Shown: positions 5,191-41,207 of the stretch, piece by piece
Numbering within the stretch: position 1 is the first letter of the stretch
Layout of the letters: every line of letters starts with the position of its first letter
From: Eledone cirrhosa
Taxonomy: Eukaryota
DNA length: 64,000 nucleotides
Direction: 5' to 3'
Assembly: GCA_964016885.1 (NCBI GenBank)
Contig: OZ024740.1
Location: forward strand, 31,558,001-31,622,000
Made by a program: the position numbers and the translations under genes
Notes under the pieces: generated by a model
The model's input: the letters and a program-made list of their open reading frames with translations, nothing else
The model's database searches: none
Told to the model about the DNA's origin: nothing

Positions 5191-5624
5191 TATATATATA
5201 TATATCAGATAGGGTGTGGTAAAAACCAGGTAGACCATAACCCACCAGAGTACTCAGTACTTGGGGTAGTAGAGTCAGATCTAGCTGTCGAAACGGCTGG
5301 GTCCTGAATCTTTTCATATATATATATATAACGTTCCTAGAGCAACCGCAGAGAGTGAAAACCCGCGAATATTGTACGTGGTCCATAAAAATGCCTATAA
5401 ACATGAAAACATGTAAAATATAGGCCGACAAATATGGTATATTGTTATTAATAATTTAGCGTTAAAAAACGTGAAAAAATATATATTACAACAAAAAACA
5501 CCATTAAAAAATCACAGTAGATATTTATGATTCCGCAAATTTGCGGAGGTTTCCATAAATCATTTTTAGTTATGTTCTAAGGAAAATTCTGTGAATAACC
5601 GGGACCAGGAATGTGAGGAGAACA

Positions 5625-5677
<53 letters not shown>

Positions 5678-5750
5678 GAAATAGCAACACAATCGGTACA
5701 GTATATAGAAGGGATATATTAGGTTAACGCTTGATATAGCAGGAAGAGGG

Positions 5751-5786
5751 TCTTAACGTTTCGGACGCTAGTCTTTCATCAGAAGA
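5751..5786 (-). ncRNA. Minimal hammerhead-like motif in a ~365-bp element (5671-6037) bounded by (TA)n
   Basis: Minus strand TCTT-CTGATGA-A-AGAC(tagc)GTCC-GAAA-CG-TT-AAGA. Palindromic AACGTT fits dimer-type minimal hammerheads; one stem II mismatch. Confidence 0.6.
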
Positions 5787-6033
5787 AAGAATGAGAAATA
5801 AGATAGATTGAGGGGACGGGTGGGATGGAATTGGAAAAAATGTCTTTAGATAAAAATAACAGGTCCATTCGTGTTGACATCTCTGGCAATCTCCCCCCAC
5901 CTCATAAGCGCCAAAACCTGGTGACAGGCCTAAGACATTAACCACTGGAAATACCTCTTTATGTTGCATTTCTCCTCTTTGGAATTCTGAATGGCACAAT
6001 ATTCCTTCTTCAATTCTTGCACTGTGGCCATGC

Positions 6034-6086
<53 letters not shown>

Positions 6087-6189
6087 ATTAATCGTTAATG
6101 ACTCTGTTGGCTTTCTGCATCCTGACATTGTAAGTGTAAGCGCATTGTAAGTGTAATTGTAAGTGTAAGCTTCAGTGATTTGAGGTAAG

Positions 6190-6595
6190 CTCTCACCACC
6201 TCTGCCCATGTTTTTCGTGTTCTTCCTTTACTGCGTTTTCTTCCACTGGGATTTCTTGGCACTTTTTCACCCAGCGATCATCTTCCATGTGCATCACATG
6301 GCCATACCAACGCAGTCTTCTCCCCTGCATACTACAGTTTCACTCTCAACTCGTCCATGCTTGGTCGTTCATGCACATTGACATTGCACATCCATCGGAG
6401 CATGCTTGCTTAATTTCTCTCCAGCCTTCGCATATCCTCCGCAGTTGCTGCCCATGTTTCACTACCATGCAGCATCGGGCATCTCACAAAGGCATCATAT
6501 AACCAACCTTTCATTCATAGGGAGAAACCTTTCGTTGTCAACAGAGGAAGCAACTCCCTAAACTTATTCCATCCTGTCCTTATTCTAGATACTAT
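6190..6595 (-). mobile_element. RTE LINE fragment
   Basis: Similar to 43860-44280 (minus-strand LHGSETWA...LRWYGHV). Confidence 0.8.
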
Positions 6596-6939
6596 GTGTG
6601 TGTGTGTCGATGTTTACTGTTTGTTTTTGACAATAAAAGATCAATAAAAAATAAATGTCAGATTTGAAACAAAATATATACTGGGTCAGTTTGATTGAAA
6701 AAAATTATCTTCAAAGCATGGACACAGTATAATGACTGAAATCAGTAAAAGAGTAATATATATATATATATAGGCATGCACAATATCATGATTATCCCAT
6801 GACAATTATTTACAAGTCCTTAATCATGATTGTTGAATATTTTATTCTGTTTAAAAACGACCATTTGAATATAATGAAGTATAATCAATTTATTTTGAAG
6901 AAAAACTGAAAAAACTCTGGGAAACTAAATCAGAACAAC

Positions 6940-8625
6940 CTGCCATCCCCTGCACATAATCATATACTGGAATCAAGGTACAAATTGTTGTCTTTGAATG
7001 CACGTAGTCTATGCAATAAGATTCATCTTTTTGACTCCTACGTCAAAAGTATCAACCCTGACTTCATTACAGTCACGGAAACTTGGGCACATCCCTTACT
7101 CTGTGATGGGGTTTTCAGCATAACTGGCTACAACCTGTTTCGTAAAGACCGCATTAATTGTGGTGGTGGTGGTGGTGTAATTGTCTACGTTAGGTCAAAT
7201 CTGTCAGCAATCCCTTATGTTGATTTGAACCAATCACAGCAGGAAGTTTTTTTCTGTGACATACGTATGACCATGTCAACACTGCTACTTGGAGTCATTT
7301 ACCGTCTCCCAAATTACCATCAGGACACTCAACTTTGTGATATCCTCAGAGCTGCTGCCAGGAAAATAGCCACTTATGTCTTTATTGCAGGAGACATCAA
7401 TCACCCAGAGATTAACTGGGAAACCTTTCGTTGGCCGCCAAGTGCAAATGACTTCCTTGAGCTAGTGCTGGACTCGAATTGGTCCCAAGTAGTCACCTCC
7501 CCAACAAGAGGTGACAACACATTGGACCTACTCTTCACCACTACTCCTGAAACGGTCATTAGTGTTACTGCTGAAGAACCTTTAGGTGACTCTGATCATG
7601 CTATGATCATTGCCAATCTATCCCTCATGGGCAGTAATAAGAACCACAACCATCTCCAAACTGCTCACTTTTACTGGAATAAAGCAGACTGGAACTGTTA
7701 CTGCACCGAGCTGCAACGTCCAAACTGGCTTGAGTTCTACGACTCTGGAGATGTTAACACTGTACTCCAGAACATCCTGAGCTCAATATGGACAGCATGT
7801 GCAGCATCGGTGCCACGTAAGCGGAAAAACATCACAAAAGTGCAATTTGGGAGACTGCAGCAGTCCGCTTTGCTAGAAAAGAATGTTGCAATGCTGAACG
7901 TGAGTACAAACTGCACAAATCAGACATCAATAGGAAGAGGCGAAATAAATCGTCCAACCACCTCAAACAGGTGACAAAAAAGACAGTGCTTCAATTTGAG
8001 CAGCGCATAGCAACCAGCCCTGACAGTAAGGTGTTCTGGAAGTATGTTCATCAAAGCAGAGGCCTCACTCTCCAGTTGGTGCTCTTCACAATCCTCACAC
8101 AAGCCAGGTTACTGACGACCCCCAAGGAATGTGCAGAGCTCATTGCTGAATGCTATGCAGGCATTTTCACTATTGAAGACCAGAGTGTACCGTCTCCACC
8201 ACCTATGACACCGGACTCTATTACAACCATGAATTTACACCTGCAATGCTGCGACGTCACCTAAAAAATAAACGCAACCATGCCTCTCCTGGTCTTGATG
8301 GTGTTACGTACCTGCTTCTTAAATGTGGTGGGTACTTCCTTCTGCACCAGCTATCACGCTTTTTGATTTCCATGTGTCTAACACACGTGAACATGTCCAC
8401 AAAGTCAGAAAACAGCACAGTTCCCATGACTTTCGGAAACATTTTTTCACGCTCAGAGTTGCTGAAGCATGGAACAAACTACCTGCATCAGTTGTTAGCT
8501 GTCATGACATTGCATCCTTTAAAACCTCCATGCTTCCCGAGATTCGCCAACACTACACCTAATGTTCCCCCTCCATACACATACACACATGTATATCATG
8601 ACTCATACACTATTCACTTCCCTTT
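6940..8625 (+). mobile_element. CR1/L2-group LINE with APE endonuclease joined directly to the 3' end (RT core missing)
   Basis: ORF 6985-7974 has LSLNARSL, TETW, GDINHP, TRGDNTLDL, GDSDH. After SPGLDG (~8290) the sequence switches at ~8360 to a match with 4265-4530. Confidence 0.85.
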
Positions 8626-8711
8626 TGCTTTTCATCCTGATGGGGTTGAAGCAGTTTATAAAATAATGATGATAATATTTATATTTTGTGTATTTGTATC
8701 TTGTATTATAT

Positions 8712-9335
8712 GTATCAACAGAGGTCACCAATATAGCAGACATTTAATAGTCACCAGTTTAGCTGTTAAATACTATTATGTCATGTAATAATAATATCAA
8801 CAACAATATGTAGTTTGTTGTAACAGGAAAGGTATGGTTTGTTATATCAATAAATATTAGTTGAATTGAGGTTTTGCTGTAAGTCTCAGGTTCTGTTGCT
8901 GCTGTGATAATAACTCTGGAAGGAATCTTTCCATATCACATTTAAAGGCATGGCTGTGGTAAATAGCACCACAAGACTTTACAATGTTTTTACATCATTT
9001 ATTTACAAAGGTTGAGTTGGATTGAGCTGACATGCCAAACAAATGAAACAAACAAATTAAGATTTCAGAAGGCACGGTCCACTGGATGAGGTGTTAGCCA
9101 AGGCCGCTGTTATGTTGTAGTGTTACATATTGGCTAGTGATTTCACGACAAAAGAAAAATGGTTGTTTACCTTTCCACAGTTGAAGCAACAAGAGATCGA
9201 GTTTATTGAAAGGAGCGGGAAAGTCTCAGTTTGGGCGGAAGTTGAAAATACATATCTGTGCGCGGCTCACGATTGGCCTGACTTAGCCAAATCATGCACG
9301 AATAGCCTATCAATGTGCCAAAGGAAAGTAGCTTG
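8712..9335 (+). repeat. ~620-bp interspersed repeat (probable DNA-transposon derivative); inverted second copy at ~25445-26092
   Basis: Direct sequence match; ORFs 9130-9360(+) and 25389-25616(-) give near-identical peptides. Confidence 0.8.
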
Positions 9336-9557
9336 TTACAGGGCCAATAAAATAAAGTAGCAGTAATACACTGGGATAATTGCTGGCCTTGTGCCAAAAG
9401 TAGAAACAGTTATTGTTACTGAACTTCAAAATGGTATATCACACAGACATTGCTAAATATAAGTTTATTCCTAAATAACCATTAATGTTTAAAATAAAAA
9501 CTCACAATTATTTTTGCACCAACTTGATGTATTTTATTTCCATAATTATACTTCTAG

Positions 9558-9713
9558 CTGATGAAACTGATGGATCTGAAATTCATTTCAAAGAATGGGA
9601 GAGAACAACATTATCTGGGTCTATAATTCCTTTTGATATAAATGACCCAAGATTTAATGTTGCTGATAATTGCAGAGGCAAAATAAGTTTATATGACAAC
9701 CAGTCACCACATG
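9558..9713 (+). CDS. LRRK2: LRRK2-like exon A (pre-LRR linker)
   Basis: cttctag|CT...CATG|gtaatt, phase 1-1; [15 protein letters not shown]...DNQSPH. Supported mainly by phase continuity with downstream exons. Confidence 0.7.
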
Positions 9714-12700: not shown

Positions 12701-13123
12701 TGACTTCAAAGGATCGCAACATGTGGAGAGATGCCATGCTGCGAAGGACCCGTCCAATCTATGCAAGCTTGGAAAAGCAGACGTAAAAATAATGATGATG
12801 ATCATATGATATATATAAAGGAAGGTAAAAACCCTACTGCGATGCCTAGCGTTTTTGCTTGTGACATTTCAAGCGTTGCTAAATACAAACCAAAATCACT
12901 TGGTGTCTTGGACAGGTTTTACCTTCTTTTATACCCACTCTGCTTCTTCCTATGTATAGAATACTAACCTGATTTGTGGTCTCCCTGGCTTTACATATAT
13001 CATCATCATCATCATCATCATTTAACGTCTATCTTCCACGCTAGCATGGGTTAGACGGGAGTTGTCCCACTTGAAGCAAGATTGATCGGGTGACCGTGTC
13101 TCGCTCGTATAGGACTATCTGGC

Positions 13124-13169
<46 letters not shown>

Positions 13170-16100
13170 CGTTTCTGAATTTGTTTAGCAAGATTCTTTA
13201 TCTGAAATCGTGTGTTGAAACCGATATTGTTATACTTTGGGAGGGTCATGTTGCCAATAAGAAACACACGCACCAGTTGCTTTCACTTCAATTTATTATA
13301 ATAAATTTATAATAAATTTATAATAAATTTATAAATTTATAAATTTCTGGTTGGTTGGTTGGTTCCACAACCAGATAGTTGTTTATATATTGTTATAGTT
13401 CTTTCGTCACACACTCTGTGACCTCTTCAGTGACTGGGGATTCCTTTCTTTGTTTCTGTGCCTCTCCTTTGTTCTGTCCTACGCCATTTTGTTTCTCTGT
13501 GTGTGTTGTGTGCTCAGTCTGCGCATGCACCACATCCAGGTGTCTGTGTGTGTTTATGTTCATTTATTTATTTGTTTATTTACATGTTACTGGTTGGTTG
13601 TTTGTTCTGTGTGTGTGTGTGTTTTCATTTTGTCCTTAATTGTAAGTTGTGATGTTGCTGTTCCACTCATATTTTCTATTTAACTTATTCATGGTATGGT
13701 GGGACAGTAGACTTAAACTTAAAGAACAATTAGAAGCCCCTTAACCCTGATAATGTACTCCCGCTACGTTGATGATATAAACATTGTAGTTAAGACACCC
13801 CTCTAGAGAACAGTCAGGAACTAGAGAAAAACACAATGGAAAGCATCCATCAAATAGCAAACTCCATCCACCAGAGCATTAGAGTTACTATAGACTACCC
13901 AAGTAAACACCCCAACCATCGATTACCTGTACTAGACACAGAGCTCTGGTTAGATACCATTAACAACAAAAAACAAATCCTCCATTCCCATTATGCCAAA
14001 CCCATGACTTCCAAACATCTGATCCACCGAAACTCGGCCATTTCGGACCATACCAAAATTAACATACTGATTGCGGATTTGGTACGGGTGATGAGAAACG
14101 TGTCCCGCATGTGCAACCCCGAAGAACTAGAGAGACACATACAACACTTCATCCACCGTATGCAGTTCTCTGGCTACAATCAGAGAGATAAAATCAGAGT
14201 GTATAGAGGAGCCAGAACCAAATGGGAAAAAATGGTAAATAATGACATAAATGGGACCTGCCCCTTGTATAGGAGCAAATTTTGGAATAGAATAGAAAGA
14301 ACTAGGAACAAGGCTAATAGAATAAACTCATGGTATGATAGCAATAAATACCAGAGTGTAATGTTCATCGATACAACCCCTAGAGGGGAATTAGCTTACA
14401 AATTTAGAAGGGCCCTAAACAAACATAAACTCAATATTAAGATAGTAGAAAGACCAGGTACCTCCGTAAAAACACTTATTAGCAAGACATACCCTTTTCA
14501 AAGACCCTCATGTATACATAAGAAATGTATAACCTGTAAAATAAGCCCCCATATTAACTGCAAAACTAGAAATGTAGTGTATAGCATAAGATGTACTGAA
14601 GGACAATGTAGAGACAAAAATATAGTGTACATAGGTGAGACAGCTCGTAGTGTAGGAGAATGGATAAATGAACACTGGCGAGACCTTCAAGATAGTAAAG
14701 AATCATCTGTACTCTACCAACATGCTAAAATAGAACACAAGGGTAAATTAGAGAACATAGAAATAAAAATAGAATCTACACACAGAAAAGACGCAATGTT
14801 TAGACAAATTACAGAGGCAATAAACATAAAAGAATTACAACCAAAATTAAATAGAAAATATGAGTGGAACAGCAACATCACAACTTACAATTAAGGACAA
14901 AATGAAAACACACACACACAGAACAAACAACCAACCAGTAACATGTAAATAAACAAATAAATAAATGAACATAAACACACACAGACACCCGGATGTGGCG
15001 CATGCGCAGACTGAGCACACAACACACACAGAGAAACAAAATGGCGTAGGACAGAACAAAGGAGAGGCACAGAAACAAAGAAAGGAATCCCCAGTCACTG
15101 AAGAGGTCACAGAGTGTGTGACGAAAGAACTATGACAATATATAAACAACTATCTGGTTGTGGAACCAACCAACCAACCAGAAATTTATAAATTTATAAA
15201 TTTATAATAAATTTATTATAATAAATTGAAGTGAAAGCAACTGGTGCGTGTGTTTCTTATTGGCAACATGACCCTCCCAAAGTATAACAATATATATATA
15301 TATATATACATATTCAAAATAGGGGGCACAGAGGACAAAGACAATGGAAAGGTGGTCTGTCCCATCTCCTCAGTCAACCTCTGGAAATCACTACAGTTTC
15401 AGTATATTAAAGTTGATACTATTCATTTGAGTGTACATTGGGGCATAACAAAACAGGTATAGACAAGTTATATATGTATATATATATTAAGAATTAAAGA
15501 ATTTTATTGTACATCTACAAACTGGTTACTGAGAGTTGATAAGATTTTGGTTTTAAACCAATTTTTTGGCTTTCATCATCTTAACATTTTAACATCCTAT
15601 TCCATTCACACCTGAAAAGTTATGCCACTGGTATTAAACATTTTTCATTTTCTACTGTTCTATATTACAGAAAATAAATATGATGGGTTCAAAACTTAAA
15701 AGAAATAAATTTGACTTCTACAGTACCTCTCCAGATAAAGAAAGGGAATTTTATTCTGATGAAGAATGTTCAACTTCAGATGATTGTAGAAAAAGTATGT
15801 GATTTTTTAAAATGGAATCCCACTATAAGATAGAAACTAAACTAATATTAAGGTTTATTTTAAAATTCAAAGGGTTAGGCAAACAGTTTTTTAGTTATTC
15901 TTCCATATGTGCATGTATATCTATTTACCTACCTACTTATGTACATTCCTTTATACATCCTCACACCCAAATAATTGTCATCATTTTAACATCTATTTTT
16001 CTATACTGACTCAATCATCAGTTGTCTCTTCTTTTTTAAGTCTAACATCTTGAGATAAACTATTGTTAATAGTACCTATAACTGAGGGAAGATGAGGAGT

Positions 16101-16533
16101 GATGTAGTTAGATTCAATGTTGTAATGCTTTGAATCAGGCTCACAAGATATAAATAACAAAACCCCCAAAATCAACAAGGCTTAGTAGTTTAAGAGTTTG
16201 CTTTGCAATCATTGTATCTGAGTTCAGTCCTGCTGCTTGTCATGTTGGACAAGTATTTTCTACTATAGCCTCAGGCTGTCCAGTACCTTGTGAGTGGAAT
16301 TTGGTATTCAGAAACTGCAGAAGCTCGTTATATATATAAAGAGAGAGAGGTAGAACACTGGAAGGTAATATCCATAGTGGTAGAGCACTCAATCCATGGG
16401 ACGAGTTTGGTAGAGGTAGTAACACAACAGTTAGTTCACCATACCAAGAACAATTGTTTCACCTTTTGCCTAAGGTGAAACATAAGGTGAAACAATTGTT
16501 CTCGGTATGGTGAACTAACTGTTGTGTTACTAC

Positions 16534-16583
<50 letters not shown>

Positions 16584-19500
16584 GTTATTTATCTAAGTGT
16601 TTATTTCTGAGTGTTGTGTTTGCATCATCTCACTCAACAAATTTGGTGTAAACAGGATAGAGCACTCCACATTGGTAGTAATGTAAATGCTAAAGGGTAA
16701 ATGTTTATTCATGTGTATATATATGTGTGTGTATATGTGTGAATATGTATGTCCCATAACTTAGCAGTTCAACAAAACCATTAAAAAAAATAAAGATTGA
16801 TAAAATAAGTATCAAATTAAAAAAAATAAATACAGAGTCGATATGATTGACTAAATCAAGGTGGTGCCCCAGCATGGTCAGAGTCTACTGACTGAAACAA
16901 GTAAATATAATAAAAGAATAGGTAACAAAAACTTAATGTGGACAACCACTACATGATAGCATGGAATATTTAACATAAAAACTAATGATGGTAATTTGGT
17001 ATTGAGTAACCCTTATTTGTTCTGATTCTGCCCTTCCATTTTCAAGAGAATAGGGTGTAATTTGAGGGTCATTTGGCAGCTATTATTAACATATTGAAAG
17101 GGCGGTGGATTGGCAGTATCGGTAGAGGGTCGGATGCCATGCTTTCCAGCATAGTTACGTCCCTTTACGATCTGAGTTCAAATCCCGCCGAGGTTGACTT
17201 TGCCTTTCATCCTTACGGGGTCAATAAAATAAAGTACCAGTAATGCACTGGGTAATTGCTGACCTTGTGCCTAAAGTAGAAACAATTATTAACATATTGA
17301 ATGATTGTGCCTTTATTGTTGATTTTAAACATGTCTGGTGATTGTAATGTCATTGTATAGCATCAACAACTAAAAAAGAGATAGACACTATGTAAGACAA
17401 TTACTAAATATAAAAATATATTTTAAAAATAGATTACTGATGCATTAACAGTGTTTTGTTTCAATGCCATACTGTGCTACTTACTTGCTTACTTTTCATG
17501 CCACATCAGATCTGATGGTTGGTAAATGTGTGATGCAGTTATGACATATGTGCGCATGTGCAGGTGTATGCATATACATATCAGGGTGGTGAATTGGCAG
17601 ATCGGTAGAGCCTCAGACACCATGCTTTGCAGCATTGAGTTATGGCCCTTTGCGTTGTGAGTTCAAATCACGCTGAAGTTAACTTTGCCTTTCGTCCTTT
17701 TGGGGGTCGATAAAATAAAGCACCAGTAATGCGCTGGGGTAATTGCTGGCCTTGTGTCAAAAGTAGAAACAATTATTATCAGTCATCAACATATTTTTTA
17801 ATATACAGACCCTCATTGAAAAAGCATTATAACAAATGCTTTCCCAGGGACCACCAAACTGAGGCAAGGTTGGCTTACTGCTCTTGAGAATATATCTATA
17901 AAAATATCATCATCATCGTTTAATGTCCATTTTCCATGCTAGTATGGGTTAGATGGGTTGTCCCATTAAAGGTAGTTGGGTCATATGACCATGTCTTGCT
18001 CATATAGGACTCTTTCTGGCTGGTTTTCTATGGGTGGTTGCCCTTCCTAATGCCAACCACTTTACAGTGTGTGCTGGGTGCTTTTTATTGTGACACCTAC
18101 ATGACCACTTTACAGTGTGAACTGGGGACTGAGGCAAGGGTGTAAAGGTGTGGGAGAAGGGTGTGTTGTTAGGGCGTGGGAGGTGCATGGAAGGGGGAGG
18201 GAGGTGCATGGAAGGGGGAGGTGCATGGAAGGGGGAGGGAGGTGCATGGAAGGGGGAGGGAGGATAGCAGTTAAGTGATGCATACTAGATGTATGCTTCA
18301 ATCTATGTGCATGGGAAGGCGCATCTTCTGTATTACTGCATAATGACAAAGATCTCGATCCTGTGTCATTGTCCTTAAGAGGTGCAATTGTGCAAGGTCA
18401 ACTTTTATCACTTCATTCCGAGTCTTCCTAGGTCGTCCTACTCCATAACTTTCATCAACTTTCATCGTCCTGTACCTTTTCATACAGGTGTCATCCTTCA
18501 TTCGCATGACATGGCTATACCAACACAATCTCTTCTACTGCACACTGCATTTGATCCCTCCTAAACCCAATTTCTCTTTCAGTTCATTCAGCTGATAAAC
18601 TCATAGGCTGACCAAGATACTCTCATGGAATGACCAAATGAGGTTTATTTTTCAACATAGTCCCTGGAAAGAAACACTGCAGTTATAAATAAGAAGAGTT
18701 GAAATTAATGCATACAAGATTTCACAGCTCTAGCATCACTTCTTTATTGTCAGCCTATGAACTTTTCTGCCGTCTCTTGTAGTATAACACTTTTTATCAA
18801 AATATTTTCATGTTAAAATAATATTAATTGAAAGGATTTTACTTTTTAAGTTAACAAACTTTTATTAGCCAAGTTTCTGATAATATAATATTAACTCTTT
18901 CAGAACTTTCTGGAAAGAAAAGCCCAAGTTTTGTTCAGAAAACTAAGAAAACTAAAACTAGCAGTGATGTTCATGAGAAACATGTTGCCTTAAATCTCTC
19001 ATACAACAATATTTTGGACTTCTCCTTTTCATCAGTAAAGAGTAATATCCAACAGAAATGTTTCCGATATCTACAGAAACTTAATATTTCTAACAATCAA
19101 CTTGTCACAATTTCAGAAAATTTGTTTAATGTAAGATTTTTCTTATTTCCTCTTCATTTCCTTTTTGCTTAATTGTTTTGAATAATAATAATAATAATAA
19201 TGAAATTATTGTGTAAAGTGCTCAGGTGCACTACAACTCATCAAAGGTGCATGTATAGTACATAGAATAATATACAAATGTCAGGGAAGTGAATAGTGTA
19301 TCAGTCATGATATACATGTGTGTATGTGTATGGAGGGGGAACATTAGGTGTAGTGTTGGCGAATCTCAGGAAGCATGGAGGTTTTAAAGGATGGTCTGCT
19401 CACATCTATTTTTATATCTATTAATGTTATGTCTACAAAAAGTTCAGTTTTTCTTTTCTTTGTGTGTCTGATCTCTTTTTTAAAATATCTTTGGTTTAAG

Positions 19501-22500
19501 AATGTTATCGTTTCTTGCTAGGAAGCTAGTAGTGTTGTCTGTTGTTGTTGAAGAAGATTACAAAGCAATTTTTCGGGTGTGTAGCACGTGGTGAAGTGTT
19601 TGGTAATGAATTGAAGCATTGTAGCGAAGTCACCCTAAATATTCTGTAGAACTGAAGTTTGGTAAATAATTTGAAGAAGTGAAGTTTTATCATGTAGATG
19701 AAAAGCTTGGTAATTATAGATTACCGGGGTTACCAATTGAAGCAATACAAAGTTAGTAGATGTTGTTAGGTGAAAATAACACAAATAGATGGTTTCATTT
19801 TGATATAAAATTTACTTCATTTCATAAATGAACAAAGAATAGGTTACTACGAGTTATAACGGTTGACGATGTTTTGTTGTTACTTCGTTATGCTGGTGTA
19901 GTCTGTGGCCAGAGAAGGTGAGAGCGAGAGAGAAAGGTTTGTAGGAGCCAGTAGACCAGGAGAGAGAGTAAAGGTCTCTAGAAATCTGTAGACCCCAAGG
20001 GGTCTGTAGGAAGCAAATGTACTGCTCCAAAGTGGTTTTATGTGGGCCCTAATGCTTTGTAGCATAGAGTTATGGGCCTTTACGTTCTGAGTTCAAATTC
20101 CGCCAAGATTAACTTTGTCTTTCATCCTTACGGGGTCAATAAAATAAAGTACCAGTAATGCACTGGGGTTGATTTAATCAACTTCCCCCTTCCCCAAAAT
20201 TGCTGGTCTTGTGCCTATAGTTGAAATCATTATTATTATAATAATAACAATAATAATTATTATTTCTACTTTTGGTACAAGGCCAGCAATTATCCCAAAG
20301 TACCAGTAATACACTGGGATAATTGCTGGCCTTGTATGATTGGCTATTTTATGACATTTACTTTGGTTGGTCCCTGCCTTCAACATAGTAATCAAATCAA
20401 CTTTGTGTTTCATTCCTCCACCGAGTCACTATAAATAGCAAAAGTGATTCAATCAACTATGCCTTCTCATATTTTGTTTAATTAAAAGAAAGTTTAAAAT
20501 TTAATTTTTAATTTTTATTTTTATTTTAGTTTCTACCAGAACTGAAGGAGTTGGACATTTCCAATAATTGTCTAAATAATTTCCCAGTTGGAGTTTTGAA
20601 TTGTCGGTGTTTGGAAACTCTGAAAATCAAATACAATAGGGTGTGTTATTTATCTAAGCATCATCATCATCATCATCATCATCATAATCCCCATCACCAC
20701 CACCACCATCCATCACCACCACCACCATCCATCACCACCACCACCATCCATCACCTCCACCATCATTATCACCAGCACCAACACCACCACCATCACCACC
20801 ACCACCACCACCACCACCATCCATCACCACCAACACCAACCACCACCATCACCATCACCATCACCACCACCATCACCACCATCACCACCACCACTACCAT
20901 CCATCAGCACTACCATCACCATTATACCACCACCACCACCACCACGACCATCCATCACCACTACCATCACCATTATACCACCGCCACCACCACAACCTCC
21001 ACAACCATCACCACAACCATCACCACCACCATCACCACCACCATCACCACCAACACCAACCACCACCACCACCATCACCACCACCATCACCACCACCACC
21101 ACCACCATCACCACCACCACCACCATCCATCACCACTACCATCACCATTATACCACCACCACCACCACCACCACCATCCATCACCACTACCATCACCATT
21201 ATACCACCGCCACCACCACCATCACTGCCACCTCCCCAACCATCACCACCACCATCACCACCACCACCACCATCACCACCACCACCATCACCACCACCAC
21301 CATCACCACCACCACCACCACCACCACCACCACCACCACCACCATCACCACCACCACCACCTACACCACCACCACCACCACCACCACCACCACCACCATC
21401 ACCACCACCATCACTGCCACCACCACCACCACAACCAACACCACCATCACCACCACCACCACCACCACCACCACCACCACCACCACCACCACCACCATCA
21501 CCACCACCATCACTGCCACCACCACAACCAACACCACCATCACCACCACCACCACCACCACCACCACCACCACCATCACCACCACCATCACTGCCACCAC
21601 CACCACCACAACCAACACCACCATCACCACCACCACCACCACCACCACCACCACCACCACCATCACCACCACCATCACTGCCACCACCACAACCAACACC
21701 ACTATCACCACCACCACCACCATCACCACCACCACCACCACCACCACCACCACCACCACCACCACCACCATCACCACCACCACCACCTACACCACCACCA
21801 CCACCACCACCACCACCACCACCACCACCACCACCACCACCACCATCACCACCACCATCACTGCCACCACCACCACCACAACCATCACCACCACCACCAC
21901 CACCATCACCATCATCATCAATATTGAAACATTTCTTTATTTCATCATGTTTTTATTTTTTCAGATTAAAGACATTTCTTGTGCAGATTTTCCTGTTTTA
22001 TTTAGTTTAAAGAATTTAGATTTATCAGGAAATACTCTTCATCAATTCCCATCATGGCTGGCAGAACATTTTCCAGGATTAGAGAATTTGTATCTGAAAA
22101 AGTGAGAAATAGCCAAACATTTCTTGTCTAGCATGACCTTCTTCTTCTTCTTCTTCTTCTTCTTCTTCTTCTTCTTCTTCTTCTTCTTCTTCTTCTTCTT
22201 CTTCTTCAGCTTAAAATGTGACCTGACATCTCTCCCCCCTCCCACTACCACCCCCTAACAGTTATTCTCAACTTCACTACTTCAACCCCCTCACACACAC
22301 ACACATTCCTGACAGCCCCCCCCCCCCCCATTTGGGAAGTGGTTGGTGATAGAAAAGTCATCCAGTTGTAGAAAATTTGTCAGACAACACATCAAGCGAA
22401 CCCTCCAGTCATGTCAAGGACATGACAACCTCCCTAGTGTTGGTGATTTACACGATAACTGCATCGTGTACACACTGTAAAGTGGTTGGTGATATGAAGG

Positions 22501-31500: not shown

Positions 31501-34500
31501 TGTACCTTGTGTACATATGTATGTATGTATGTAGTGGCCAATACTAACAGCATGAACTTGTCAATGAAAGATTATCAGCCCCTGTTCATCTGTTCTGTCT
31601 CTCCAATATATAGAACTGTCATGAGCAACCTGCAGCTCGTGAACCTTTCTGAATGGCTCACCTAAGTCACCTAAGTGAAATCTTTCTGATGTTTTTACCC
31701 CAACTTTTCAGTCGTAATTTATCTTTCTATCATTTTTGCAATCGAGGAAAACAACGTGTACGAATTCTGAAGAAACAAATCAAAACAACCTGAGTTACCA
31801 CTCTTTTTTTTAAATGTGGGCACGAATGAAAATTAGCACTTGTAGCCTGCCTGAGAATGAGCCATATCTCATGCAGCCCGCTTCTCGAAAAAGGTTGCCC
31901 ATGCCTGATATAGAATCTCAGGCTAACACTAACGGCATAAACTTGTTGATAAAAGGTTATCAGCCTCCATTCATCCTTTCTGACTCTTCATTGTACACAT
32001 CCCCAGGTGTATGCAATCTCATGATCCCTGTAAGCAGATTATAGAAAGCATTACTAGGGTCCACTACATAATATTCTAATGACTCAGTTTTTACCATTCA
32101 TTAGAGGAGGGGGCCCACACATTTGTTTTGTTACTATTAGCTTTAACCCTTTCAATAGCAAATGACCTAAAACTGTGCTTGTCTCTATGATACAAAACTG
32201 TTTGTTTTACAATATATATATTTATTTAAAAACTTCCTATCATAATTTTATATAAGAACCTTTGTTGAGTTGTGTTCCAAACAGCTGCTTCATAACAAGA
32301 AAATTAGTTATATTACTAAATCCTTTTCGAAAAACCATAGGCAATGTCTTTCATTAGAAAAGTGGTAAGTTAGCTATATTACTAAATCCCTATAAATTCT
32401 TGAATATTATCAAAATTATAGGCAGTGTCATTCAAAAGAAATAATATATTTTGTTTCTGTTTAAAATATAACTGTTTTCTCTTCAGATGCCCCTAGATGG
32501 AGTTGATATCTCCCTCAATAACAGACTTTTGAAAGGCAGAGTAAGAGACATCATCTTGGACCTTAGTTACAGATTAAAAAATGTAAGAAGTTTGATTCTT
32601 TCTAAATTTTTACAAATTTAAATCTATTAAAGTACTTTTTTATGTAATGATCTTATAACTGCTTTGTTTTTAGTGTTGAGCGAAGGAGGGAAGGGCATAC
32701 CTATACCTATGGCAACGGTCTAGGGTTTCAGTGACTAGTGGAAGGGAGCTAGGTATCATCAAACTGGAAGATCTGTTCCAAATGCTTACAACACAGGTGG
32801 GTGTTAAATCAAGCATCAGATTAAGTTTACCATCCAAGTAGGTCCCAGCAGGATTTGAAACTTAGAATGCAAAGAGCTAAAAGAAATAACATAAGACAAT
32901 AAATTGTAGCATGCAAGAGAGAAGACTGTGATGGTATGGACATATGATGCGCATGGAGGATGACCGCTGGTCAAGAAATGCCAGTAGAAGGAAGACGCAG
33001 TAGAGGAAGATCACAAAAAACATGGACGGAGGTGGTGAGAGCAGACCTCAGATTGCTGAAGCTCACAGAGGAGATGACAAGTGGAAAGATGGTGTGCTGA
33101 ATATGACCCGTCCCACCCTTGCAAGCAGGGCAAAGTGGACATAAAATGATGATGATGATGATGATCTCATCTGATACCCTAGCAATTACAAAGACAAGCA
33201 TTAGTGTAGCAATGAAACAGTTCCAATGAGGACTTGAAACTGGATCAGAAAAGTAGTTCATAATAGAACTTATCAGGAGGAAATTATATATATGTATATC
33301 ATCATCATCATCATCGTTTAACGTCTAACTTCCACGCTAGCATGGGTTAGACGGGAATTGTCCCACTTGAGGAAAGGCTGGTTGGGTGACCGTGTCTCGC
33401 TCATATAGGACTGTCTGGCAGGTTTTCTACAGCTGGATGGCCTTCATAACGCCAACCACATTTAAAGTGCAGACTGGGAACTTTTTACCGTGTTACCTAC
33501 ACTGCCACATTACAGCGTGGACTGTGTGTTTTTTTGTTGTGACACCTACACAACCTCATTTATTTAGGACTGGATGTTGTGGTACCAACATAACTTTATG
33601 GAGAAAGGGGTGTTGATGGTGGGAGTGGAGTGGAGTAGGGGTAGTGGGATGGGGGTGTATATTTGGTTAAGAGGTGCCTACTGACTGTAGGCATCACTTT
33701 ATACATAGGCAAGGCGGGTCTTCTGTATTACTGCGTAGCGCCAAAGATCCAGTGACATTGTCTTAGAGAGGTGTAAGTGTGTAAGGTCAGAATTTATCAA
33801 ATCGTCCCAGGTTTTTCTGGGTCTACCTACTCCATAACTTCCATCAATTTTGATTGCCCTGCACTTTTTTATACAGCTGTCGTCTTTCATGCGCATCACG
33901 TGACTATCTCGAGTAAACAGCATCTGATCCCTCTTATTCCTAATTTCTCACTTAGTTCATTTATGCTTTGCCGTTCACGTATATTACTATTACATATCCA
34001 ACGGAGCATGCATGCTTCGTTCCTCTCCAGTCTGCGTATATCCTCTGCACACAATGCCCATGTCTCACTGCCATGTAACAAAGCTATTCGTATACAAGCA
34101 TCATACAGTCTGCCTTTCATTTTTAGAGAGAAACCTTTAGCAGCCAATAGTGGTATAAGCTCTCTGAACTTTTTCCATCCAGTTCTGACTCTAGCTACTG
34201 TACTTTCAGAGCACCCTCCACCACTGCTGATTTTGTCACCCAGGTAACGGAAGGTGTCTACTATTTCTATAGAACCATCTGGGCAGTAGAAGGAGCTAGT
34301 ATTCTGTGGGCACTTGCTACTTATTGCACCTGAGCACCGGCCACATATAAAATCTATGTTCTTAGTTAGCTTACCTGTGATCCCACTACATCTTTTATGC
34401 ACCCACATTTTGCATTTGGGACATAAAATGGAATTTCTACCTACTCCTTTCCTACACACTGAGCATGGCCATTTCCCAGATGGGACCAGTGCCCTATTTT

Positions 34501-37500
34501 CCTTCCTACATACTAGAACTTTAGTCTTAGGCAAGTTAACTTTAAGGCCTTTTGATTCTAGGCCATGCTTCCATGTTTGGAATTTCTTCTCTAGTTCAGC
34601 CATAAATTCGTATAGGAGTTCCCATGGGCAGCTGGTCTTGAACTCCTCTGTTATAGCCTGAAGGGCAATTGGAGGGGGCTAAGGACAGAGCCCTGATGAA
34701 CACCATATATATATATATATAGCTCCCTGATGATTTCTCACGAATGAAACAGTTCTAGTCCTGTATAAGCTCTTCTATATTAAAACTTTTATACTCTGCT
34801 ATGTATTGAGTACCTTACTTACTGTGGTTACCTCCAATTCAACCCGGAATAACTTATCATCATCATCATCATCATCACCGTTTTACGTCCGTTCTTCCAC
34901 GCTAGCATGGGTTAGACGGGTTGTCCTGTTGTGGGCAGTGTCTGGTCGGCTGACCATGCCTTGCTCATACAGGAACTGATTTGGCTTGATTTCTACAGCT
35001 GGATGCCCTTCCTAACACCAACCTCATTTACAGTGAGTGCTGGGTGCTTTTTTTCCGTGGTGCCTACACGTCCACTTTACAGTGCTCAGTCTCTCTCTCA
35101 ATTCATTTATGCTTTGTCGTTCACGTATATTATTGTTACACATCCATCGGAGCATACAGGCTTCGTTTCTCTCTAATCTACGTAAGTCTTCCACCTTCAG
35201 CGCCCAGGTCTCGCTACCATGCAACATCGCTGTTCGGATACAAGCATCATACAGTCTGCCTTTCATTCTGAGGGAGAAGCCTTTTGCAGCTAGCAGTGGT
35301 AGTAGTTTCCTAAACTTCTTCCATCCCGTTCTTACCCTAGTTATTGCACTTTCTGAACACCCACCTCCGTTGCTAATTCGGTCACCTAGGTAGCAGAAGC
35401 TGTCAACTGTTTCTACAGGGCCCTCCCAGAGATTGGTGGTACTTGTTTCCTGTGGCTGTTTGCTGTTTGCTGTCTCAGCACAGCTGCTGCATGTGAATCC
35501 TACATTCTTAATTAAGCTTCCTGAAATCCCGCTACATCTCTTGTGTACCCATTGTTTGCATTTGGGGCAGAGAATGGAGTTCCTACCTACACCTTTCCTA
35601 CATACTGAGCAAGGCCATTTCTCTGAGGGGGATCTGGGTTCTGTTTTCTCGTCTACTTACAAGGACCTTAGTCTTTGTCATGTTGACTTTGAGACCCTTT
35701 CTTTCTAGTCCCTGCTTCCAGGTTTGGAATTTATTCTCTAGTTCTACCATAGATTCAGCTATGAGTGCGAGGTCATCAGCATACAGGAGTTCCCATGGGC
35801 ATCCGGTCTTAAACTCCTCCGTTATTGCCTGCAGGACTATGATGAACAGGAGAGGGCTAAGAACAGAGCCCTGGTGGACCCCAACCTGTACACTAAATTC
35901 CTCGCTATACTCATTGCTAATCCTAACTTTGCTGACTGCTCCCCTATACATGGCTTGTACCACTTTCACAAGCCATTCATCTACTCCTAGTTTTCTAAGA
36001 GCCCACCAGATTACAGCACGTGGAACTCTGTCAAAGGCTTTCTCAAGGTCGACAAATGCCAAGTAGAGTGGCTTACTTTTAGCTAGGTACTTTTCCTGTA
36101 ATTGCCTCACAAGGAAGAGGGCATCAGTGGTGCCTCTTCCTGGTACAAACCCAAATTGCATCTCGTCTATTGTCCCTAATCAGCTGTGCTATAACTCTTT
36201 CTGTTACTTTCATGACCTGGTCCATCAACTTTATACCTCTATAGTTTCCTCTATCTAGTGCATCACCTTTACCTTTGTAGCAGTTGACAATGATGCTACT
36301 GCACCAATCTTTTGGTATGGCCCCTTCTAGTATTACCTGGTTAATGATACGTGTGGTTATAGTGTGACCTACAGACCCAGATGCCTTCAGCATCTCGGCA
36401 GCTATACCCGATGGACCGGTTGCCTTCCCCATCTTCATATCTCTGATTGCCTTACTTACTACGCTGCCGCTGACTTGTACTGCTGGTCCCTCTATAGGGT
36501 CTACTTGGGGTAGGGTCTCTTCTTCCCATGCATTCTCCTCATTTAGTAATCTATCATAATGACTCTTCCATGCATCTTTCTTCTCAGCACTTGTGAGGGC
36601 AAGCTCACCTTTATCATTCCAGATACACTTCTCTCCAATGACATCACAACTATCTCTGACACACTGCCTCGCAATCTTGAACACCTCCTGTTTCTGGTCC
36701 TCACGTTGTAAAACATGCTTGAATTTTCTATCCTCTGCTTCCCTCTTAGCTAAGTATACTTGTCGCCTAGCTTCCCTCTTGGTCTCTATGTAATGTACCC
36801 TGCTCCCCCCATTCTTCCATTCTTTCCATGCCTGTCTCTTGGCCTTGACTGCTTCATCTACCTTATTGTTCCACCACCAAGTCACTCTCCTCCTGCTTGA
36901 GGTCTTACTCCAGCCACAGACCTCGTCCGTCTCCTCTAGTAAATTATTTTTTAGTAACTCCCAGTTCTCTTCTACATTAAATGTCTGTATCTGTTCTTCT
37001 TTACTGTATTAGGCGTTGAGTAAAATATCTTTAAATCTGTTACTGGTTGAGGGGACATTCAGCTTCCAGATCTTTCTTCTCCAGGTTGGCCTCTGTTTCC
37101 AGGTTCGTCTAGTTCTGACCGTGAGGTCGCTGACAACTAAGCTATGTTGGGATGTACATTCCTCACTAGGGAAGGCTTTTGTGTTTACGACCGTCCATCT
37201 GTCACGTCCTCTGATGAGGATAAAATCTAACTGACTAGAGTGCTCCCCTGATCTATAGGTGATCAGGTGGTTGTCGGGTTTTTTAAAGTTTGTGTTACAT
37301 ATCGACATGTCATTGGCATCGCAGAATTCTAGAAGTCTGAATCCTTCCTCATTTCTTGTGCCAACCCCATGGCCTCCATGTACTCTATTGTAGCCGTCGC
37401 AGTGTTTACCTACGTGTCCGTTAAAATCTCCTGCGATGATTAGGAAGTCCTTGTCGTCTGTTAGAGCAGTAGTGTGTATTAGGGACTCGTAAAACCTATC

Positions 37501-38661
37501 CTTAAGTTCGTCTGGCAGCCCCGATTGGGGTGCATAAGCTGATATTATTGTGGTAATTGTTTTATTCAGGACTAGTCTGAGTTTAATGATTCTTGTGTTT
37601 ACCCTGTACACTGAGATTACTTTATCTATCCACTTGTCAGCTAGTAGTATACCTACACCACCCATCCCATCGTCATTTCCCACCCAGAAAAATTTGTAGC
37701 ACTGGCTTTTTCCTACAAGGACTCTAGCAGACCCTCCTCTCCATCTAGTCTCTTACACACAGCATACATCAACTTCCTTTCGCTCTAGCATTTCTACGAT
37801 TTCTCCTGCTCTTCCTTTCATTGAGCCTACATTGATGGTACCAACTCGGAGTTTTGGGCATTTGTCGACACTCGTAGGGAAGGGTCTCTGGGTTAGCGCT
37901 TCACGTGGGTGCTTGGTAGCTCGCAGATTCATATTTCATCTATTGATTCAGAGTTGCTCAAATTTATTCTCAGCTCATCCATCCATAACGGTGGGAAAAT
38001 TGAGGGCTAGAAGAACAGTGGTGGTGGGATAATGGCAGGGTGTGTTGGGCTGCGCCAGAGGAGGAGAGAGTTAGTTAGTAGTAGTAGTAGCAGCAGCAGC
38101 AGCCGTGGAAATGGCATGCTGAGGTTTGATTGGTCGAATAGGCTATGGTGGTGTGAGGGAAATTGTGAGGTAGGCACTGGGGATCGCATGGTAAATAACC
38201 GAGAGAGATACGATAGAATTAGAATACCGCATGGTAAATATCCGAAGTTAAAACAGCAGTAATATTAACAATAATAACGTCATAAAAACTAACTAAGATA
38301 CCTTCGAAGATTTGTATGGATGGGTGGCCGGAACGAAATGAAATCAACTCTAATGATACATTTTAGCAGATAAGGGAAAAAGGGTCTTATATATATATAT
38401 ATATTAGAAAGTGAGGTTTTTTTTACAAAATGAAAAATAACCGAGGTGTCCTACACAAGTGAAAGTATAAAGAAAAAAAGATGAAATCGAAAATGCAACT
38501 GGAATCTTATTTTTTTTAAATGTGAGAAAATGTGAGAAAGACCACAGACCCTCCATCTCAACTCTACTTGTGAAAAGCAGAAGAACTGCGAAACCGGTAA
38601 AGGAACCAAATATATTTTTTTTAAAATAAGACTCCAGTTGCATTTTCGATTTCATCTTTTT

Positions 38662-38693
<32 letters not shown>

Positions 38694-41075
38694 TTAATGA
38701 TGACGGCGTACTTGCCATCACCGACGCTGATAAGAAGGTAGCTTAGAAGTGTCACTATGAAAGGCTACTAAATGAGGAGAATAAATGGGAGAAAGACAGT
38801 CTCCCCCACATCGACCCAATAGAGGGACCAGCAGTGTTAGTCGAGGGTAGTATAATAAGTAACGCAATCAAGGATATGAAGACGGGTAAGGCGGCTGGGC
38901 CTTCGGAAATAGTTGCTGAGATGCTGAAGGCATCTGGCACGGTGGGACACACCATGGTCACCCGCATAGTTAACCAAGTCGTACAGAATGGGGTTGTTCC
39001 GAAGGACTGGCATAGCAGCATCATCGTTAACTGTTATAAGGGTAAAGGAGATGCCCTAGATAGGAGTAACTATAGAGGCATTAAATTAATCGACCAGGTC
39101 ATGAAGGTCACGGAAAAAGTAATAGCGCAACTAATCAGAGAGAGAATTGACCTAGATGAAATGCAGTTCGGGTTTGTGTCAGGCAAAAGTACCACAGACG
39201 CTCTTTTCATTGTACGACAACTACAGGAGAAGTACCTAGCTAAAGGTAAACCCCTCTACTTAGCTTTTGTCGACTTGGAGAAAGCCTTCGACAGAGTCCC
39301 CCGTTCCATTATCTGGTGGGCTCTTAGAAAACTAGGTGTTGACGAATGGCTTGTGAGAGCTATACAAGCCATGTATAAAGAAACAGTCAGCAAGGTTAGA
39401 ATTAACAACGAATATAGCGAAGAGTTTACCGTAAAAGTTGGCGTCCATCAGGGCTCTGTTCTCAGCCCCCTACTATTTATTATTGCCCTTCAGGCTATAA
39501 CAGAGGAGTTCAAGACTGGCTGCCCATGGGAACTCCTATACGCAGACGACCTGACACTCATAGCTGAATCAATGGCCGAGCTAGAGAAGAAATTCCAAAC
39601 ATGGAAGCACGGCCTAGAATCAAAAGGACTTAAAATTAACCTGGCTAAGACTAAAGTTCTAGTTTGTAGGAAAGAAAATAAGGCGGCGGTCCCTTCTGGG
39701 AAATGGCCATGCTCAGTGTGTAGGAAAGGCGTAGGTAGAAACTCCATTTTATGTCCCAAATGCAAAGTATGGGTGCATAAAAGATGTAGTGGGATCACAG
39801 GTAAGCTAACTAAGAACATAGATTTTACATGTGGCTGGTGCTCTGGTGCAATAAGTAGCAGCAAGTGCCCACAGAATACTAGCTCTTACAACTGCGCAGA
39901 GGGCTCTATAGAAATAGTGGACAGCTTCCGTTACCTGGGTGACAAAATCAGCAGTGGGGGAGGGTGCTCTGAAAGTACAGTAGCTAGAGTCAGAACTGGA
40001 TGGAAAAAGTTCAGAGAGCTTATACCACTATTAGCTGCTAAAGGGTTCTCCCTAAAAATGAAAGGCAGGTTGTATGATGCCTGCATACGAACAGCAATGT
40101 TGCATGGCAGTGAGACCTGGGCATTGTGTGCAGAGGATATACGCAGACTAGAGAGGAACGAAGCTTGCATGCTCCGCTGGATGTGTAACAGTAATATATG
40201 TGAACAGCAAAGCATAAACGAACTAAGGAAAAAATTAGAAATAAGAGGGATCAGATGTTGTTTACTCGAGAGAAGGCTACGTTGGTATGCACGTGATGCG
40301 CATGAAAGTCAATAGCTGTATAACAAAGTGCAGGGCAATAAAGATAGACGGTAGCCACGGAATAGGCAGACCTAGAAAAACCTGGGACGAGCTGATAAAC
40401 TCCGACCTCATACACTTAGACCTCTCCAAGACAATGTCACTGGACCGAGACCTTTGGCGGTACTCAGTAACAGAGAAGACCCGCCTTACCTAAATACATA
40501 GTAAAACCTACTACAGCCAGTAGGCATCTCTAACAAAATACACCCCCGTCCCACCACCCCCACCACATCCACACCGCCCCTTCTATGTAAAGTTATGTTG
40601 GTGCCACGCCATCCAGGCCAAAACAAATGAGATCGTGTAGGTGTCACGACAAAAAAACACACAGTCCACGCTGTAATGTGGCCATGTAGGCAACACGGTA
40701 AAAACCTCCCAGTTCCACACTGTAAATATGGTTGGTGTTAGGAAGGGCATCCAACTGTAGAAAACCTGCCAGACAGTCCTATGCGAGCAAGACAATCACT
40801 CTTGCCTCAAGTGGGAATACCCCCGTCCAAACCCATGCAAGCGTGGAACACGGACGTTAAACGTTGATGATGATGATGATGATGATGATGATAACAAAGG
40901 AATTGTGTTAAGGAACCAAATGAACCATAACGCACCAGAGTACTCGATACTTAGGGTAGTAGAGTGGGTAATATGAAAAAGTATGACTCCGACGGCAGAG
41001 CTCAAGCCGTTTCGACGGGTATTTCTGGACCAGAAATAGCCGTCTTGAGCTCTGCCGTCGGGGTCATACTTTTTC

Positions 41076-41108
<33 letters not shown>

Positions 41109-41207
41109 CATATATATTTCCCACTCTACTACCCTAAGTATTGAGTACTCTGGTGCGTTACGGTTCATCTGGTTCCTTACCACAATTCCTTTGTTACATA
41201 TATATAT

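Follow-up and report, generated by a model that had tools for sequence, protein, structure and literature searches.

A 64,000-nucleotide stretch of the Eledone cirrhosa genome (contig OZ024740.1, positions 31,558,001 to 31,622,000; hereafter the window) carries five short non-coding inserts that share a sequence motif and lie beside (TA)n tracts, which raises the question of what the inserts are and what the motif does. An earlier, sequence-only reading of the window had suggested a non-autonomous, retrozyme-like system mobilised by Penelope-like elements (PLEs), with the motif as a recognition signal in cis. According to the analysis reported here, the inserts are ordinary PLE debris bearing a testable cis element, a bulged hairpin located close to the points where inserted copies end.

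Inserts and their coding parents

Each of the five inserts corresponds to the end of longer elements in the genome, which encode a reverse transcriptase (RT) and a GIY-YIG endonuclease (EN), in agreement with their proposed derivation from PLE pseudo-long terminal repeats (pLTRs). They are almost certainly truncated ends of Hydra-type PLE families, the clade being assigned from protein motifs. The motif-bearing inserts are labelled E1, E2, E3, E4, E5 and E5b, and two extra hammerhead inserts H1 and H2. E1 (5206-5316) is a Hydra-type PLE end between TA tracts, in which a minus-strand tail (5206-5275) is joined to a short plus-strand arm (5276-5316) with the 3' half of a hammerhead. E2 (12811-12996, plus strand) is an old, decayed Hydra-type fold-back with a tail; its family is the oldest of the five and has a U3-A8 hammerhead core. 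E3 (16345-16545) has a minus-strand tail (16345-16411) and inverted arms (16412-16537), cut within hammerhead stem II. E4 (34720-34856, plus strand) is a single arm with a full hammerhead core (CUGAUGA at 34727) plus tail. In E5 (40893-41075), a sister family of E1, a tail on the minus strand is combined with inverted arms, and E5b (41115-41196, plus strand) is a tail-only piece of the E5 family that begins exactly at the position introduced below as end-site 1. First-look candidates for the five families numbered 3013 (E1), 521 (E2), 2629 (E3), 1594 (E4) and 5042 (E5). The E4 and H2 families were also represented by tiny stubs, TA-flanked or isolated, at 59692-59712 and 32201-32227.

The motif variants that the sequence-only reading had located in the five inserts were all recovered in place, and the TA flanks and fold-backs are genuine. 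The description of the inserts as otherwise dissimilar fails for E1 and E5 (starting at 5206 and 40893), which share 82-85% identity over 62 bp. That the inserts abut (TA)n is correct in general, but E5 on its left and E2 and E4 on their right adjoin (ATG/CAT)n runs; the one beside E5 is a (TGA)n run at 40865-40892, and those against E2 and E4 are similar. The reverse-complement motif copy at ~41120-41153 is present, but as a tail-only piece past the TA tract and not as a terminal inverted repeat. The layout of a copy is (TA)n, inverted arm, forward arm and (TA)n, with an extra motif-bearing tail of 60-90 nt on one arm. PLE insertions have been described as an inverted 5'-truncated copy plus a one-sided tail (Craig et al. 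2021, PMC8557442), and the layout of the inserts thus matches the arrangement described there. The Hydra clade of that study, which includes Hydra-1_Obim, is also alike in its pLTR hammerhead and (TA)n targets, whereas its tails measure 30-40 nt compared with about 60-90 nt here.

The coding parents are 86-96% identical to the window inserts for E1, E3, E4 and E5, and only 71-75%, over 69-76 bp, for E2. E1 shares 86% identity with L093 over the tail (L numbers denote genomic loci), and its long copies contain an untranslated region (UTR) of more than 1 kb, then a GIY-YIG EN with a CxCX5C linker and the RT C-terminus. The window copy of E3 is about 90% identical to L286/L462; in most long copies the EN is found some 0.2 kb upstream, and the read-through copy L462 extends to the start of the open reading frame (ORF). 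E4, 96% identical to L228, is the 5' leader of a Hydra-type ORF of 713-716 aa. In four tandem copies of E4 the hammerhead and tail lead into an ORF of about 716 aa, a natural copy yields an ORF of 713 aa, and in about ten of 30 loci the inverted arms are joined straight to truncated coding sequence. In the E5 family, L452 (95% identical to E5b) reads through the hammerhead, hairpin 1, hairpin 2 and the ORF start, and holds the N-terminal half of the RT only. An exact 32-mer search of the genome with E2 gave no match, and no coding link was present among its 60 best-match loci; the link emerged with a shorter pattern and extension. EN remnants were found in L562, L573, L575 and L577, the L577 tail reads through into the ORF start, and the coding copies of E2 comprise the RT N-terminus and the EN in decayed form. 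Linkage to Hydra-type PLE coding sequence was in this way found for all five families.

The coding pieces beside E4 in L159-L161 were rejected as its parent, since they come from further Hydra-type families on the far side of TA tracts. In L158 the E4 ORF is followed by a second GIY-YIG, which was discarded as a family feature because the other 29 loci lack it; it is a CCHH-type fragment (L158:1750-2100) joined at an A-run after the ORF stop, a chimera at one locus. The genome contains young Hydra-type families with open frames: frames of at least 700 aa were present in 51 of 150 scored matches, with 13,102 first-look candidates. L408-L437 are among many near-identical copies with open frames of this length, and some Hydra-type families may therefore still be active.

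The CxCX5C linker reads CNCPDRSSC in E1, CSCRKPEAC in E3 and CNCLNKEAC in E4, and is decayed in E2. The CCHH motif is absent from the ENs read (E1, E3, E4), whereas CxxC and CxH were found around a conserved E and N in E1, E3, E4 and one E2 copy. At the RT N-terminus, DKT is present in E3 and E4, and RW is followed by R or Y, not K, in E2, E3 and E4. A single ORF with RT and C-terminal GIY-YIG, the CxCX5C linker, CxxC and CxH near the C-terminus, DKT and the lack of CCHH likewise characterise the Hydra clade (PMC8557442), whose units are generally below 3 kb. In contrast to that clade, some 3' UTRs here exceed 1 kb: the 3' UTR of E3 is about 0.2 kb, the E1 UTR is longer than 1 kb, and the microsatellite-rich UTR of E4 results in a unit of more than 3 kb. 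A Pfam search with four proteins gave one weak GIY-YIG match below the cut-off, and no relative was found in viral contigs. The E4 protein has no significant match (E 0.78) to the ORF of the PLE at 13.2-15.3 kb discussed below.

An Rfam scan of the window gave no hammerhead at E<=5, only low-complexity microRNA-family matches and one tRNA-like hit, and the ribozymes were therefore read from pattern and hand pairing. Predicted cores and helices were hand-read in long copies of all five families. GAAAC had been proposed to be the 3' half of a hammerhead, and the long copies do show a full hammerhead motif; a mere hairpin loop at GAAAC was rejected for this reason. An intact CUGANGA core, as the earlier proposal would have it, was found in E3 and E4, laid out as tabulated for Hydra elements (PMC8557442, File S2), whereas the core of E1, E2 and E5 is of U3-A8 type. 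This core, and the long stem II of E1 and E5, set these families apart from the Hydra clade (PMC8557442); the U3-A8 variant is known from Cercyon (PMC4209133). Minimum free energy (MFE) folds recovered some helices for E5, E1 and E2, and none such for E3 and E4. In the window, E1, E3 and E5 are cut in stem II, leaving only the GAAAC half, E2 is decayed and E4 has kept its core. In the U3-A8-type hammerheads of L248 and L083, long copies of E5 and E1, respectively, stem II is enlarged by an insert of about 55-60 nt. As the boundary of the short arms, described below, lies inside this insert, leader transcripts would carry only half a ribozyme. Between the E4 subfamilies L408 and L223/L226, hammerhead stem I differs by matched changes on both strands, which suggests that the E4 fold is maintained.

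The bulged hairpin and the copy ends

What the inserts share is the 3' arm of a bulged hairpin made up of NCUC/GAGN' outer pairs, an inner stem of 3-6 bp and a bulge of 1-2 nt on the 3' side (mostly UU, UA or UC), followed by AC. The closing pair is G-C, A-U or U-A, and G-U pairs are too few to tell RNA from DNA. Hairpin 1 lies at 5248-5275 in E1 (minus strand; ACUC/GAGU, 4-bp inner stem, 2-nt bulge, then AC), at 12937-12965 in E2 (plus strand; one outer pair broken here and intact in other copies), at 16384-16406 in E3 (minus strand; 1-nt bulge, then GC instead of AC), at 34793-34814 in E4 (plus strand; a hit of the strict hairpin descriptor), at 40938-40965 in E5 (minus strand) and at 41123-41150 in E5b (plus strand). 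A degenerate 12-mer, composed only after the motif variants were known, matched the window 17 times against 6.3 expected, a count reached in none of 100 shuffles; the six named motif sites are all included. With the strict descriptor there were five window hits, whereas 100 shuffles averaged 1.44 and reached 5 at most. E1, E4, E5 and E5b account for four of these hits, and the window copies of E2 and E3 were missed. Genome-wide, 71,191 matches to one form of the hairpin were counted, against none for the reversed-pattern control. A hairpin look-alike (ACTC ... TAGAGCACTC) is located at 16632-16667, and no family matching it was found.

The hairpin was also sought in Hydra-type metagenome loci. 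Fifty-one of 120 homologues listed were aligned and 76 loci fetched, which yielded 35 hammerhead-downstream regions with at least 150 nt. The hairpin anchor was present in 26 of the 35 regions, in 16 of them twice. Six of the nine anchor-less regions are either tail-less 3' ends whose 5' copy has the anchor (three) or apparently non-Hydra or false hammerheads (three). With only the outer anchor fixed, 67 of 75 cells in the inner stem of hairpin 1 were paired, compared with 44 when partners were swapped between loci, and none of 20,000 swaps reached 67. The hairpin 1 alignment (27 informative of 28 rows, selected for pairing) contains 37 cells altered in both partners; its covariation score was 0.52, compared with 0.16 after shuffling. 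By eye, the hairpin was recognised in the published Hydra consensi Hydra-2_Amil, Hydra-1_Ajap (twice) and Hydra-2_Ajap, in varied form in Hydra-1_Crog and partially in Hydra-1_Amil (PMC8557442, File S7), that is, in coral, sea-cucumber and copepod consensi. The hairpin is very probably a conserved structured signal, and the motif behaves as the cis signal it had been proposed to be, a covarying hairpin close to the copy ends. A dimerisation site formed by a palindromic AGTACT was considered and dismissed, because most metagenome copies have GAGCAC.

Along read-through copies, the hammerhead is followed by end-site 1, hairpin 1, end-site 2, hairpin 2 and the ORF start (ATG), in this order. Inserted copies stop at end-site 1 or 2, mostly at a TA(T) that merges with the (TA)n target. 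The expected (TA)n enrichment was confirmed: a run of at least three TA units within 25 nt of the tail end was counted in 97 of 114 copies matching the anchor (E1 20/21, E2 8/13, E3 16/24, E4 23/26, E5 30/30), against a background of 10-19% from the same loci. Among bystander copies, meaning copies in loci fetched for other families, the 3' ends are two-peaked, with 16 and 14 of 35 arms in E5 and 23 and 11 of 46 in F9, a sixth Hydra-type family. Eighteen junctions, read by eye, could be compared; they were taken from six families of the genome and from seven metagenome loci in which a read-through pLTR and a terminal one are both present. The copy end was located 2-13 nt 5' of the hairpin (median 6.5), and since this applies to either hairpin, the one-sided PLE tail equals the hairpin spacing. 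Hairpin 2 is positioned at +68 to +90, differing between families, and in many metagenome loci about 20-30 nt above the ATG. Other TA words of the leaders are rarely used as ends, and the tail-less arm never includes hairpin 1. In E2 and E5, tail-only pieces were repeatedly seen to begin at end-site 1 or no more than a few bases from it (L478, L482, L492, L498, L499, L255; E5b); site 1 may be cut as DNA too, or TA expansion may take place there.

The short arms have a narrow 5' boundary in common, 60-80 nt above hairpin 1; counted over 51-80 nt, it is present in 22 of 23 E4, 30 of 35 E5, 32 of 46 F9 and 6 of 9 E3 arms. It is found 29 nt below a TATA box in E4 and on a TTAGTY word in E1, E5 and F9, a word that we take to resemble an initiator. 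These positions suggest that the boundary corresponds to a transcription start. A single TATA-defined start for all families was rejected, as it fits E4 only, and so was a fixed processivity limit, as both arms halt at one template position despite starts about 70 nt apart. Distinct junctions between the arms numbered 15 in 17 E5 (tail-only sample), 28 in 29 E3 and 11 in 14 E4 copies. No tandem direct hammerhead array was seen at the inserts, the copies being single or inverted. Variable junctions together with the lack of tandem ribozyme units make the inserts look like 5'-truncated, partly inverted PLE ends and not like retrozymes or miniature inverted-repeat transposable elements (MITEs).

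Possible roles of the hairpin

On balance, the hairpin appears to position the RT start a few bases upstream, with the mini fold-backs being of run-off origin. In such a scheme the RT-EN protein would bind the hairpins in its own RNA, nick (TA)n and prime at site 1 or site 2. Use of the hairpin pair near the 3' end of a read-through transcript would give a long coding copy, and use of the pair in the 5' leader would lead to run-off at the RNA 5' end after 60-150 nt. Two run-off cDNAs, primed on opposite target strands, would be joined head to head into a lopsided fold-back with a tail as long as the hairpin spacing, and the mini-elements would not propagate themselves as a class but arise as dead-end by-products. 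In the Poseidon element PAc of Anolis, reverse transcription begins at two internal sites bounding the tail, and hammerhead cleavage is unneeded in vitro (Frangieh et al. 2024, PMC11167929). A more specific version is tentative: a dimeric Hydra RT-EN might grip both hairpins as RNA docking sites and prime both nicked (TA)n strands a few bases upstream of each, so that one geometry would produce the tail, the inverted arm and the mini fold-backs in their tens of thousands. If this docking were true, any RNA given the 25-nt signal would become a template.

Several observations weigh against the hairpin as a conserved structure and as the determinant of RT starts. The motif is missing without explanation in three of the 35 metagenome regions, and none was seen by eye in the displayed ends of Hydra-1_Obim (PMC8557442). 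The inner stem of hairpin 2 is paired in 31 of 45 cells against 27 after swapping (p 0.07), which is not significant. The anchor of the pairing test was relaxed after data inspection, the metagenome loci are partly close relatives, and the alignment rows were chosen as stated above. Six hairpin-bearing stretches fold no better as single copies than shuffles (z -1.4 to +0.5), so the structural case depends on covariation; hairpin 1 of E1 is missing from the single-sequence MFE fold of the window copy. End-sites were chosen by eye and are blurred by TA microhomology, and in E4 a frequent short-arm end is separated from hairpin 1 by 17 nt on the upstream side instead of about 6 nt. E4 has a variant hairpin 2 and E2 a decayed one, and the sole E3 read-through copy has no 3' arm of hairpin 2 nearby. 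No read-through copy was found for E1; pattern searches for E1 and E2 read-through gave one uninformative locus each. In the E5 set fetched with the whole element, a query-biased sample, 19 of 30 copies share one junction. Finally, Neptune-like and Penelope-like elements here have the same tails without the hairpin.

The main rival explanation, which we consider unlikely, is that the hairpins act as DNA, the EN recognising them in the cDNA or inserted copy and cutting a few bases upstream to resolve an intermediate, so that both ends would be set in this way. The tail has been ascribed to EN-mediated resolution (PMC8557442), the EN of D. virilis Penelope required the tail for recognition, as cited in PMC11167929, tail-only pieces start exactly at site 1 (E5b and several E2 copies), and the few G-U pairs do not discriminate between RNA and DNA. 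However, tail ends coincide with RT start sites in the sole PLE tested in vitro (PMC11167929), and the exclusion of hairpin 1 from tail-less arms fits initiation upstream of an RNA signal that is not copied. Still less probable is a role in another step, i.e. translation control, RNA stability, export or packaging, with ends falling nearby through chance TA(T) microhomologies. The closeness of hairpin 2 to the ATG in many metagenome loci, the AT-rich linkers and the 2-13 nt spread of end distances could be read in this way, yet in unrelated families whose spacings differ, the two end-sites follow the hairpins, and the other TA words go largely unused.

The two remaining explanations concern the inserts themselves. 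The sequence-only reading had proposed that the short fold-backs form a non-autonomous, retrozyme-like class whose units are themselves transcribed and re-mobilised, which now seems slightly more improbable still. Tens of thousands of short copies of stereotyped size, the one E5 junction shared by 19 of 30 best matches and the proposed PLE derivation of animal retrozymes (bioRxiv 10.64898/2026.07.22.740005) would suit it. Each family nevertheless has coding long copies as a parent, nearly all fold-back junctions differ in less biased samples, the 5' half of the hammerhead is missing in E1, E3 and E5 copies, and the fold-backs have neither hairpin 2 nor the upstream promoter region. Animal non-LTR retrozymes resemble the inserts in being short, non-coding and pLTR-related with a type I hammerhead, but are defined by tandem direct repeats with a complete hammerhead per unit (bioRxiv 10.64898/2026.07.22.740005), unlike the single or inverted inserts with coding parents and often half a hammerhead. 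There is hardly any chance that the inserts are MITEs of a DNA transposon, bounded by terminal inverted repeats and TA duplications. Such an origin would suit the inverted repeats and the TA flanks, but the repeats are asymmetric, internal and variable in length, with a tail on one arm, and the joining of all families to PLE RT/EN coding sequence refutes this explanation.

Other window elements and known systems

The PLE at 13.2-15.3 kb was put forward as the mobiliser of the inserts. It is a 5'-truncated element (13168-15292, plus strand; ORF 13794-14894) built like the inserts, with an inverted pLTR and a 56-bp one-sided tail, and from its cysteine linker we take it to be Neptune-like. The motif is absent from it, as had been noted, and since it is of another type and lacks the motif it is unlikely to mobilise the inserts. 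The hammerhead cores reported at 5671-6037 and 38405-38665 both belong to non-Hydra PLEs. H1 (5671-5889, minus strand) is a Penelope/Poseidon-like PLE end with an intact minimal hammerhead and no hairpin motif; the right part of that insert (5890-6037) is matched by none of 39 other scored H1-family hits. H2 (38403-38670) is the fold-back end of a PLE with a CCHH-type GIY-YIG from a U3-A8 hammerhead family, and the core at 38405-38665 carries a change from the U3-A8 core of the family. It has only a weak motif look-alike, and a 22-mer from it has 11,131 exact genome matches. F9, which the earlier note did not list, is represented by a tail-less arm (61105-61234, minus strand) and a hairpin 1 piece (60725-60774, plus strand). 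Elsewhere F9 has a 713-aa ORF, its hairpin 1 loop is about 35 nt, and the hammerhead core is CAGAAGA in the copies seen.

Further repeats include a long open RT frame of 522 aa (38747-40315), by its look a non-LTR element and presumably RTE-like, and about 405 CCA copies at 80% matches, open in several frames (20691-21911). At 54065-54572, a 73-bp unit that contains an inverted repeat is present in seven near-perfect copies. The tRNA-like Rfam hit at 47375-47432 (32.2 bits, above the gathering score) is probably the head of a tRNA-derived short interspersed element.

Among the systems compared, PAc is alike in that two internal RT start regions bound the tail, targets are AT-rich and the signal follows the hammerhead within the 5' part of the unit (PMC11167929). 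Starts in PAc fall in an AC-rich stem-loop of the ORF and involve no homology to the target, whereas the ends here are 5' of two separate hairpins, in a non-coding leader and at TA(T) microhomologies. Solo and opposite-strand paired hammerheads 100-700 bp apart have likewise been ascribed to truncated PLEs (PMC4209133), in a report whose available text describes no downstream signal. For the Hydra clade no conserved leader hairpin is described in the main text of PMC8557442, where the word 'hairpin' does not occur, and a search of the open literature, with subscription journals and Repbase entries outside its coverage, turned up no account of the hairpin. Such elements and the shape of their insertions are already known; the hairpin cis element is apparently undescribed.

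The choice of RT start in PLEs and the origin of the inverted arm and one-sided tail were posed as open questions in PMC8557442 and have been answered only in part, for one Poseidon element (PMC11167929). A covarying 25-nt signal, repeated twice and set a fixed, short way from the two copy ends, allows a direct mutational test. As PLE RTs and telomerase are sister groups, a defined RNA-recognition element would be relevant to the selection of template RNA. For genome annotation, very abundant apparent MITEs or retrozymes become PLE debris.

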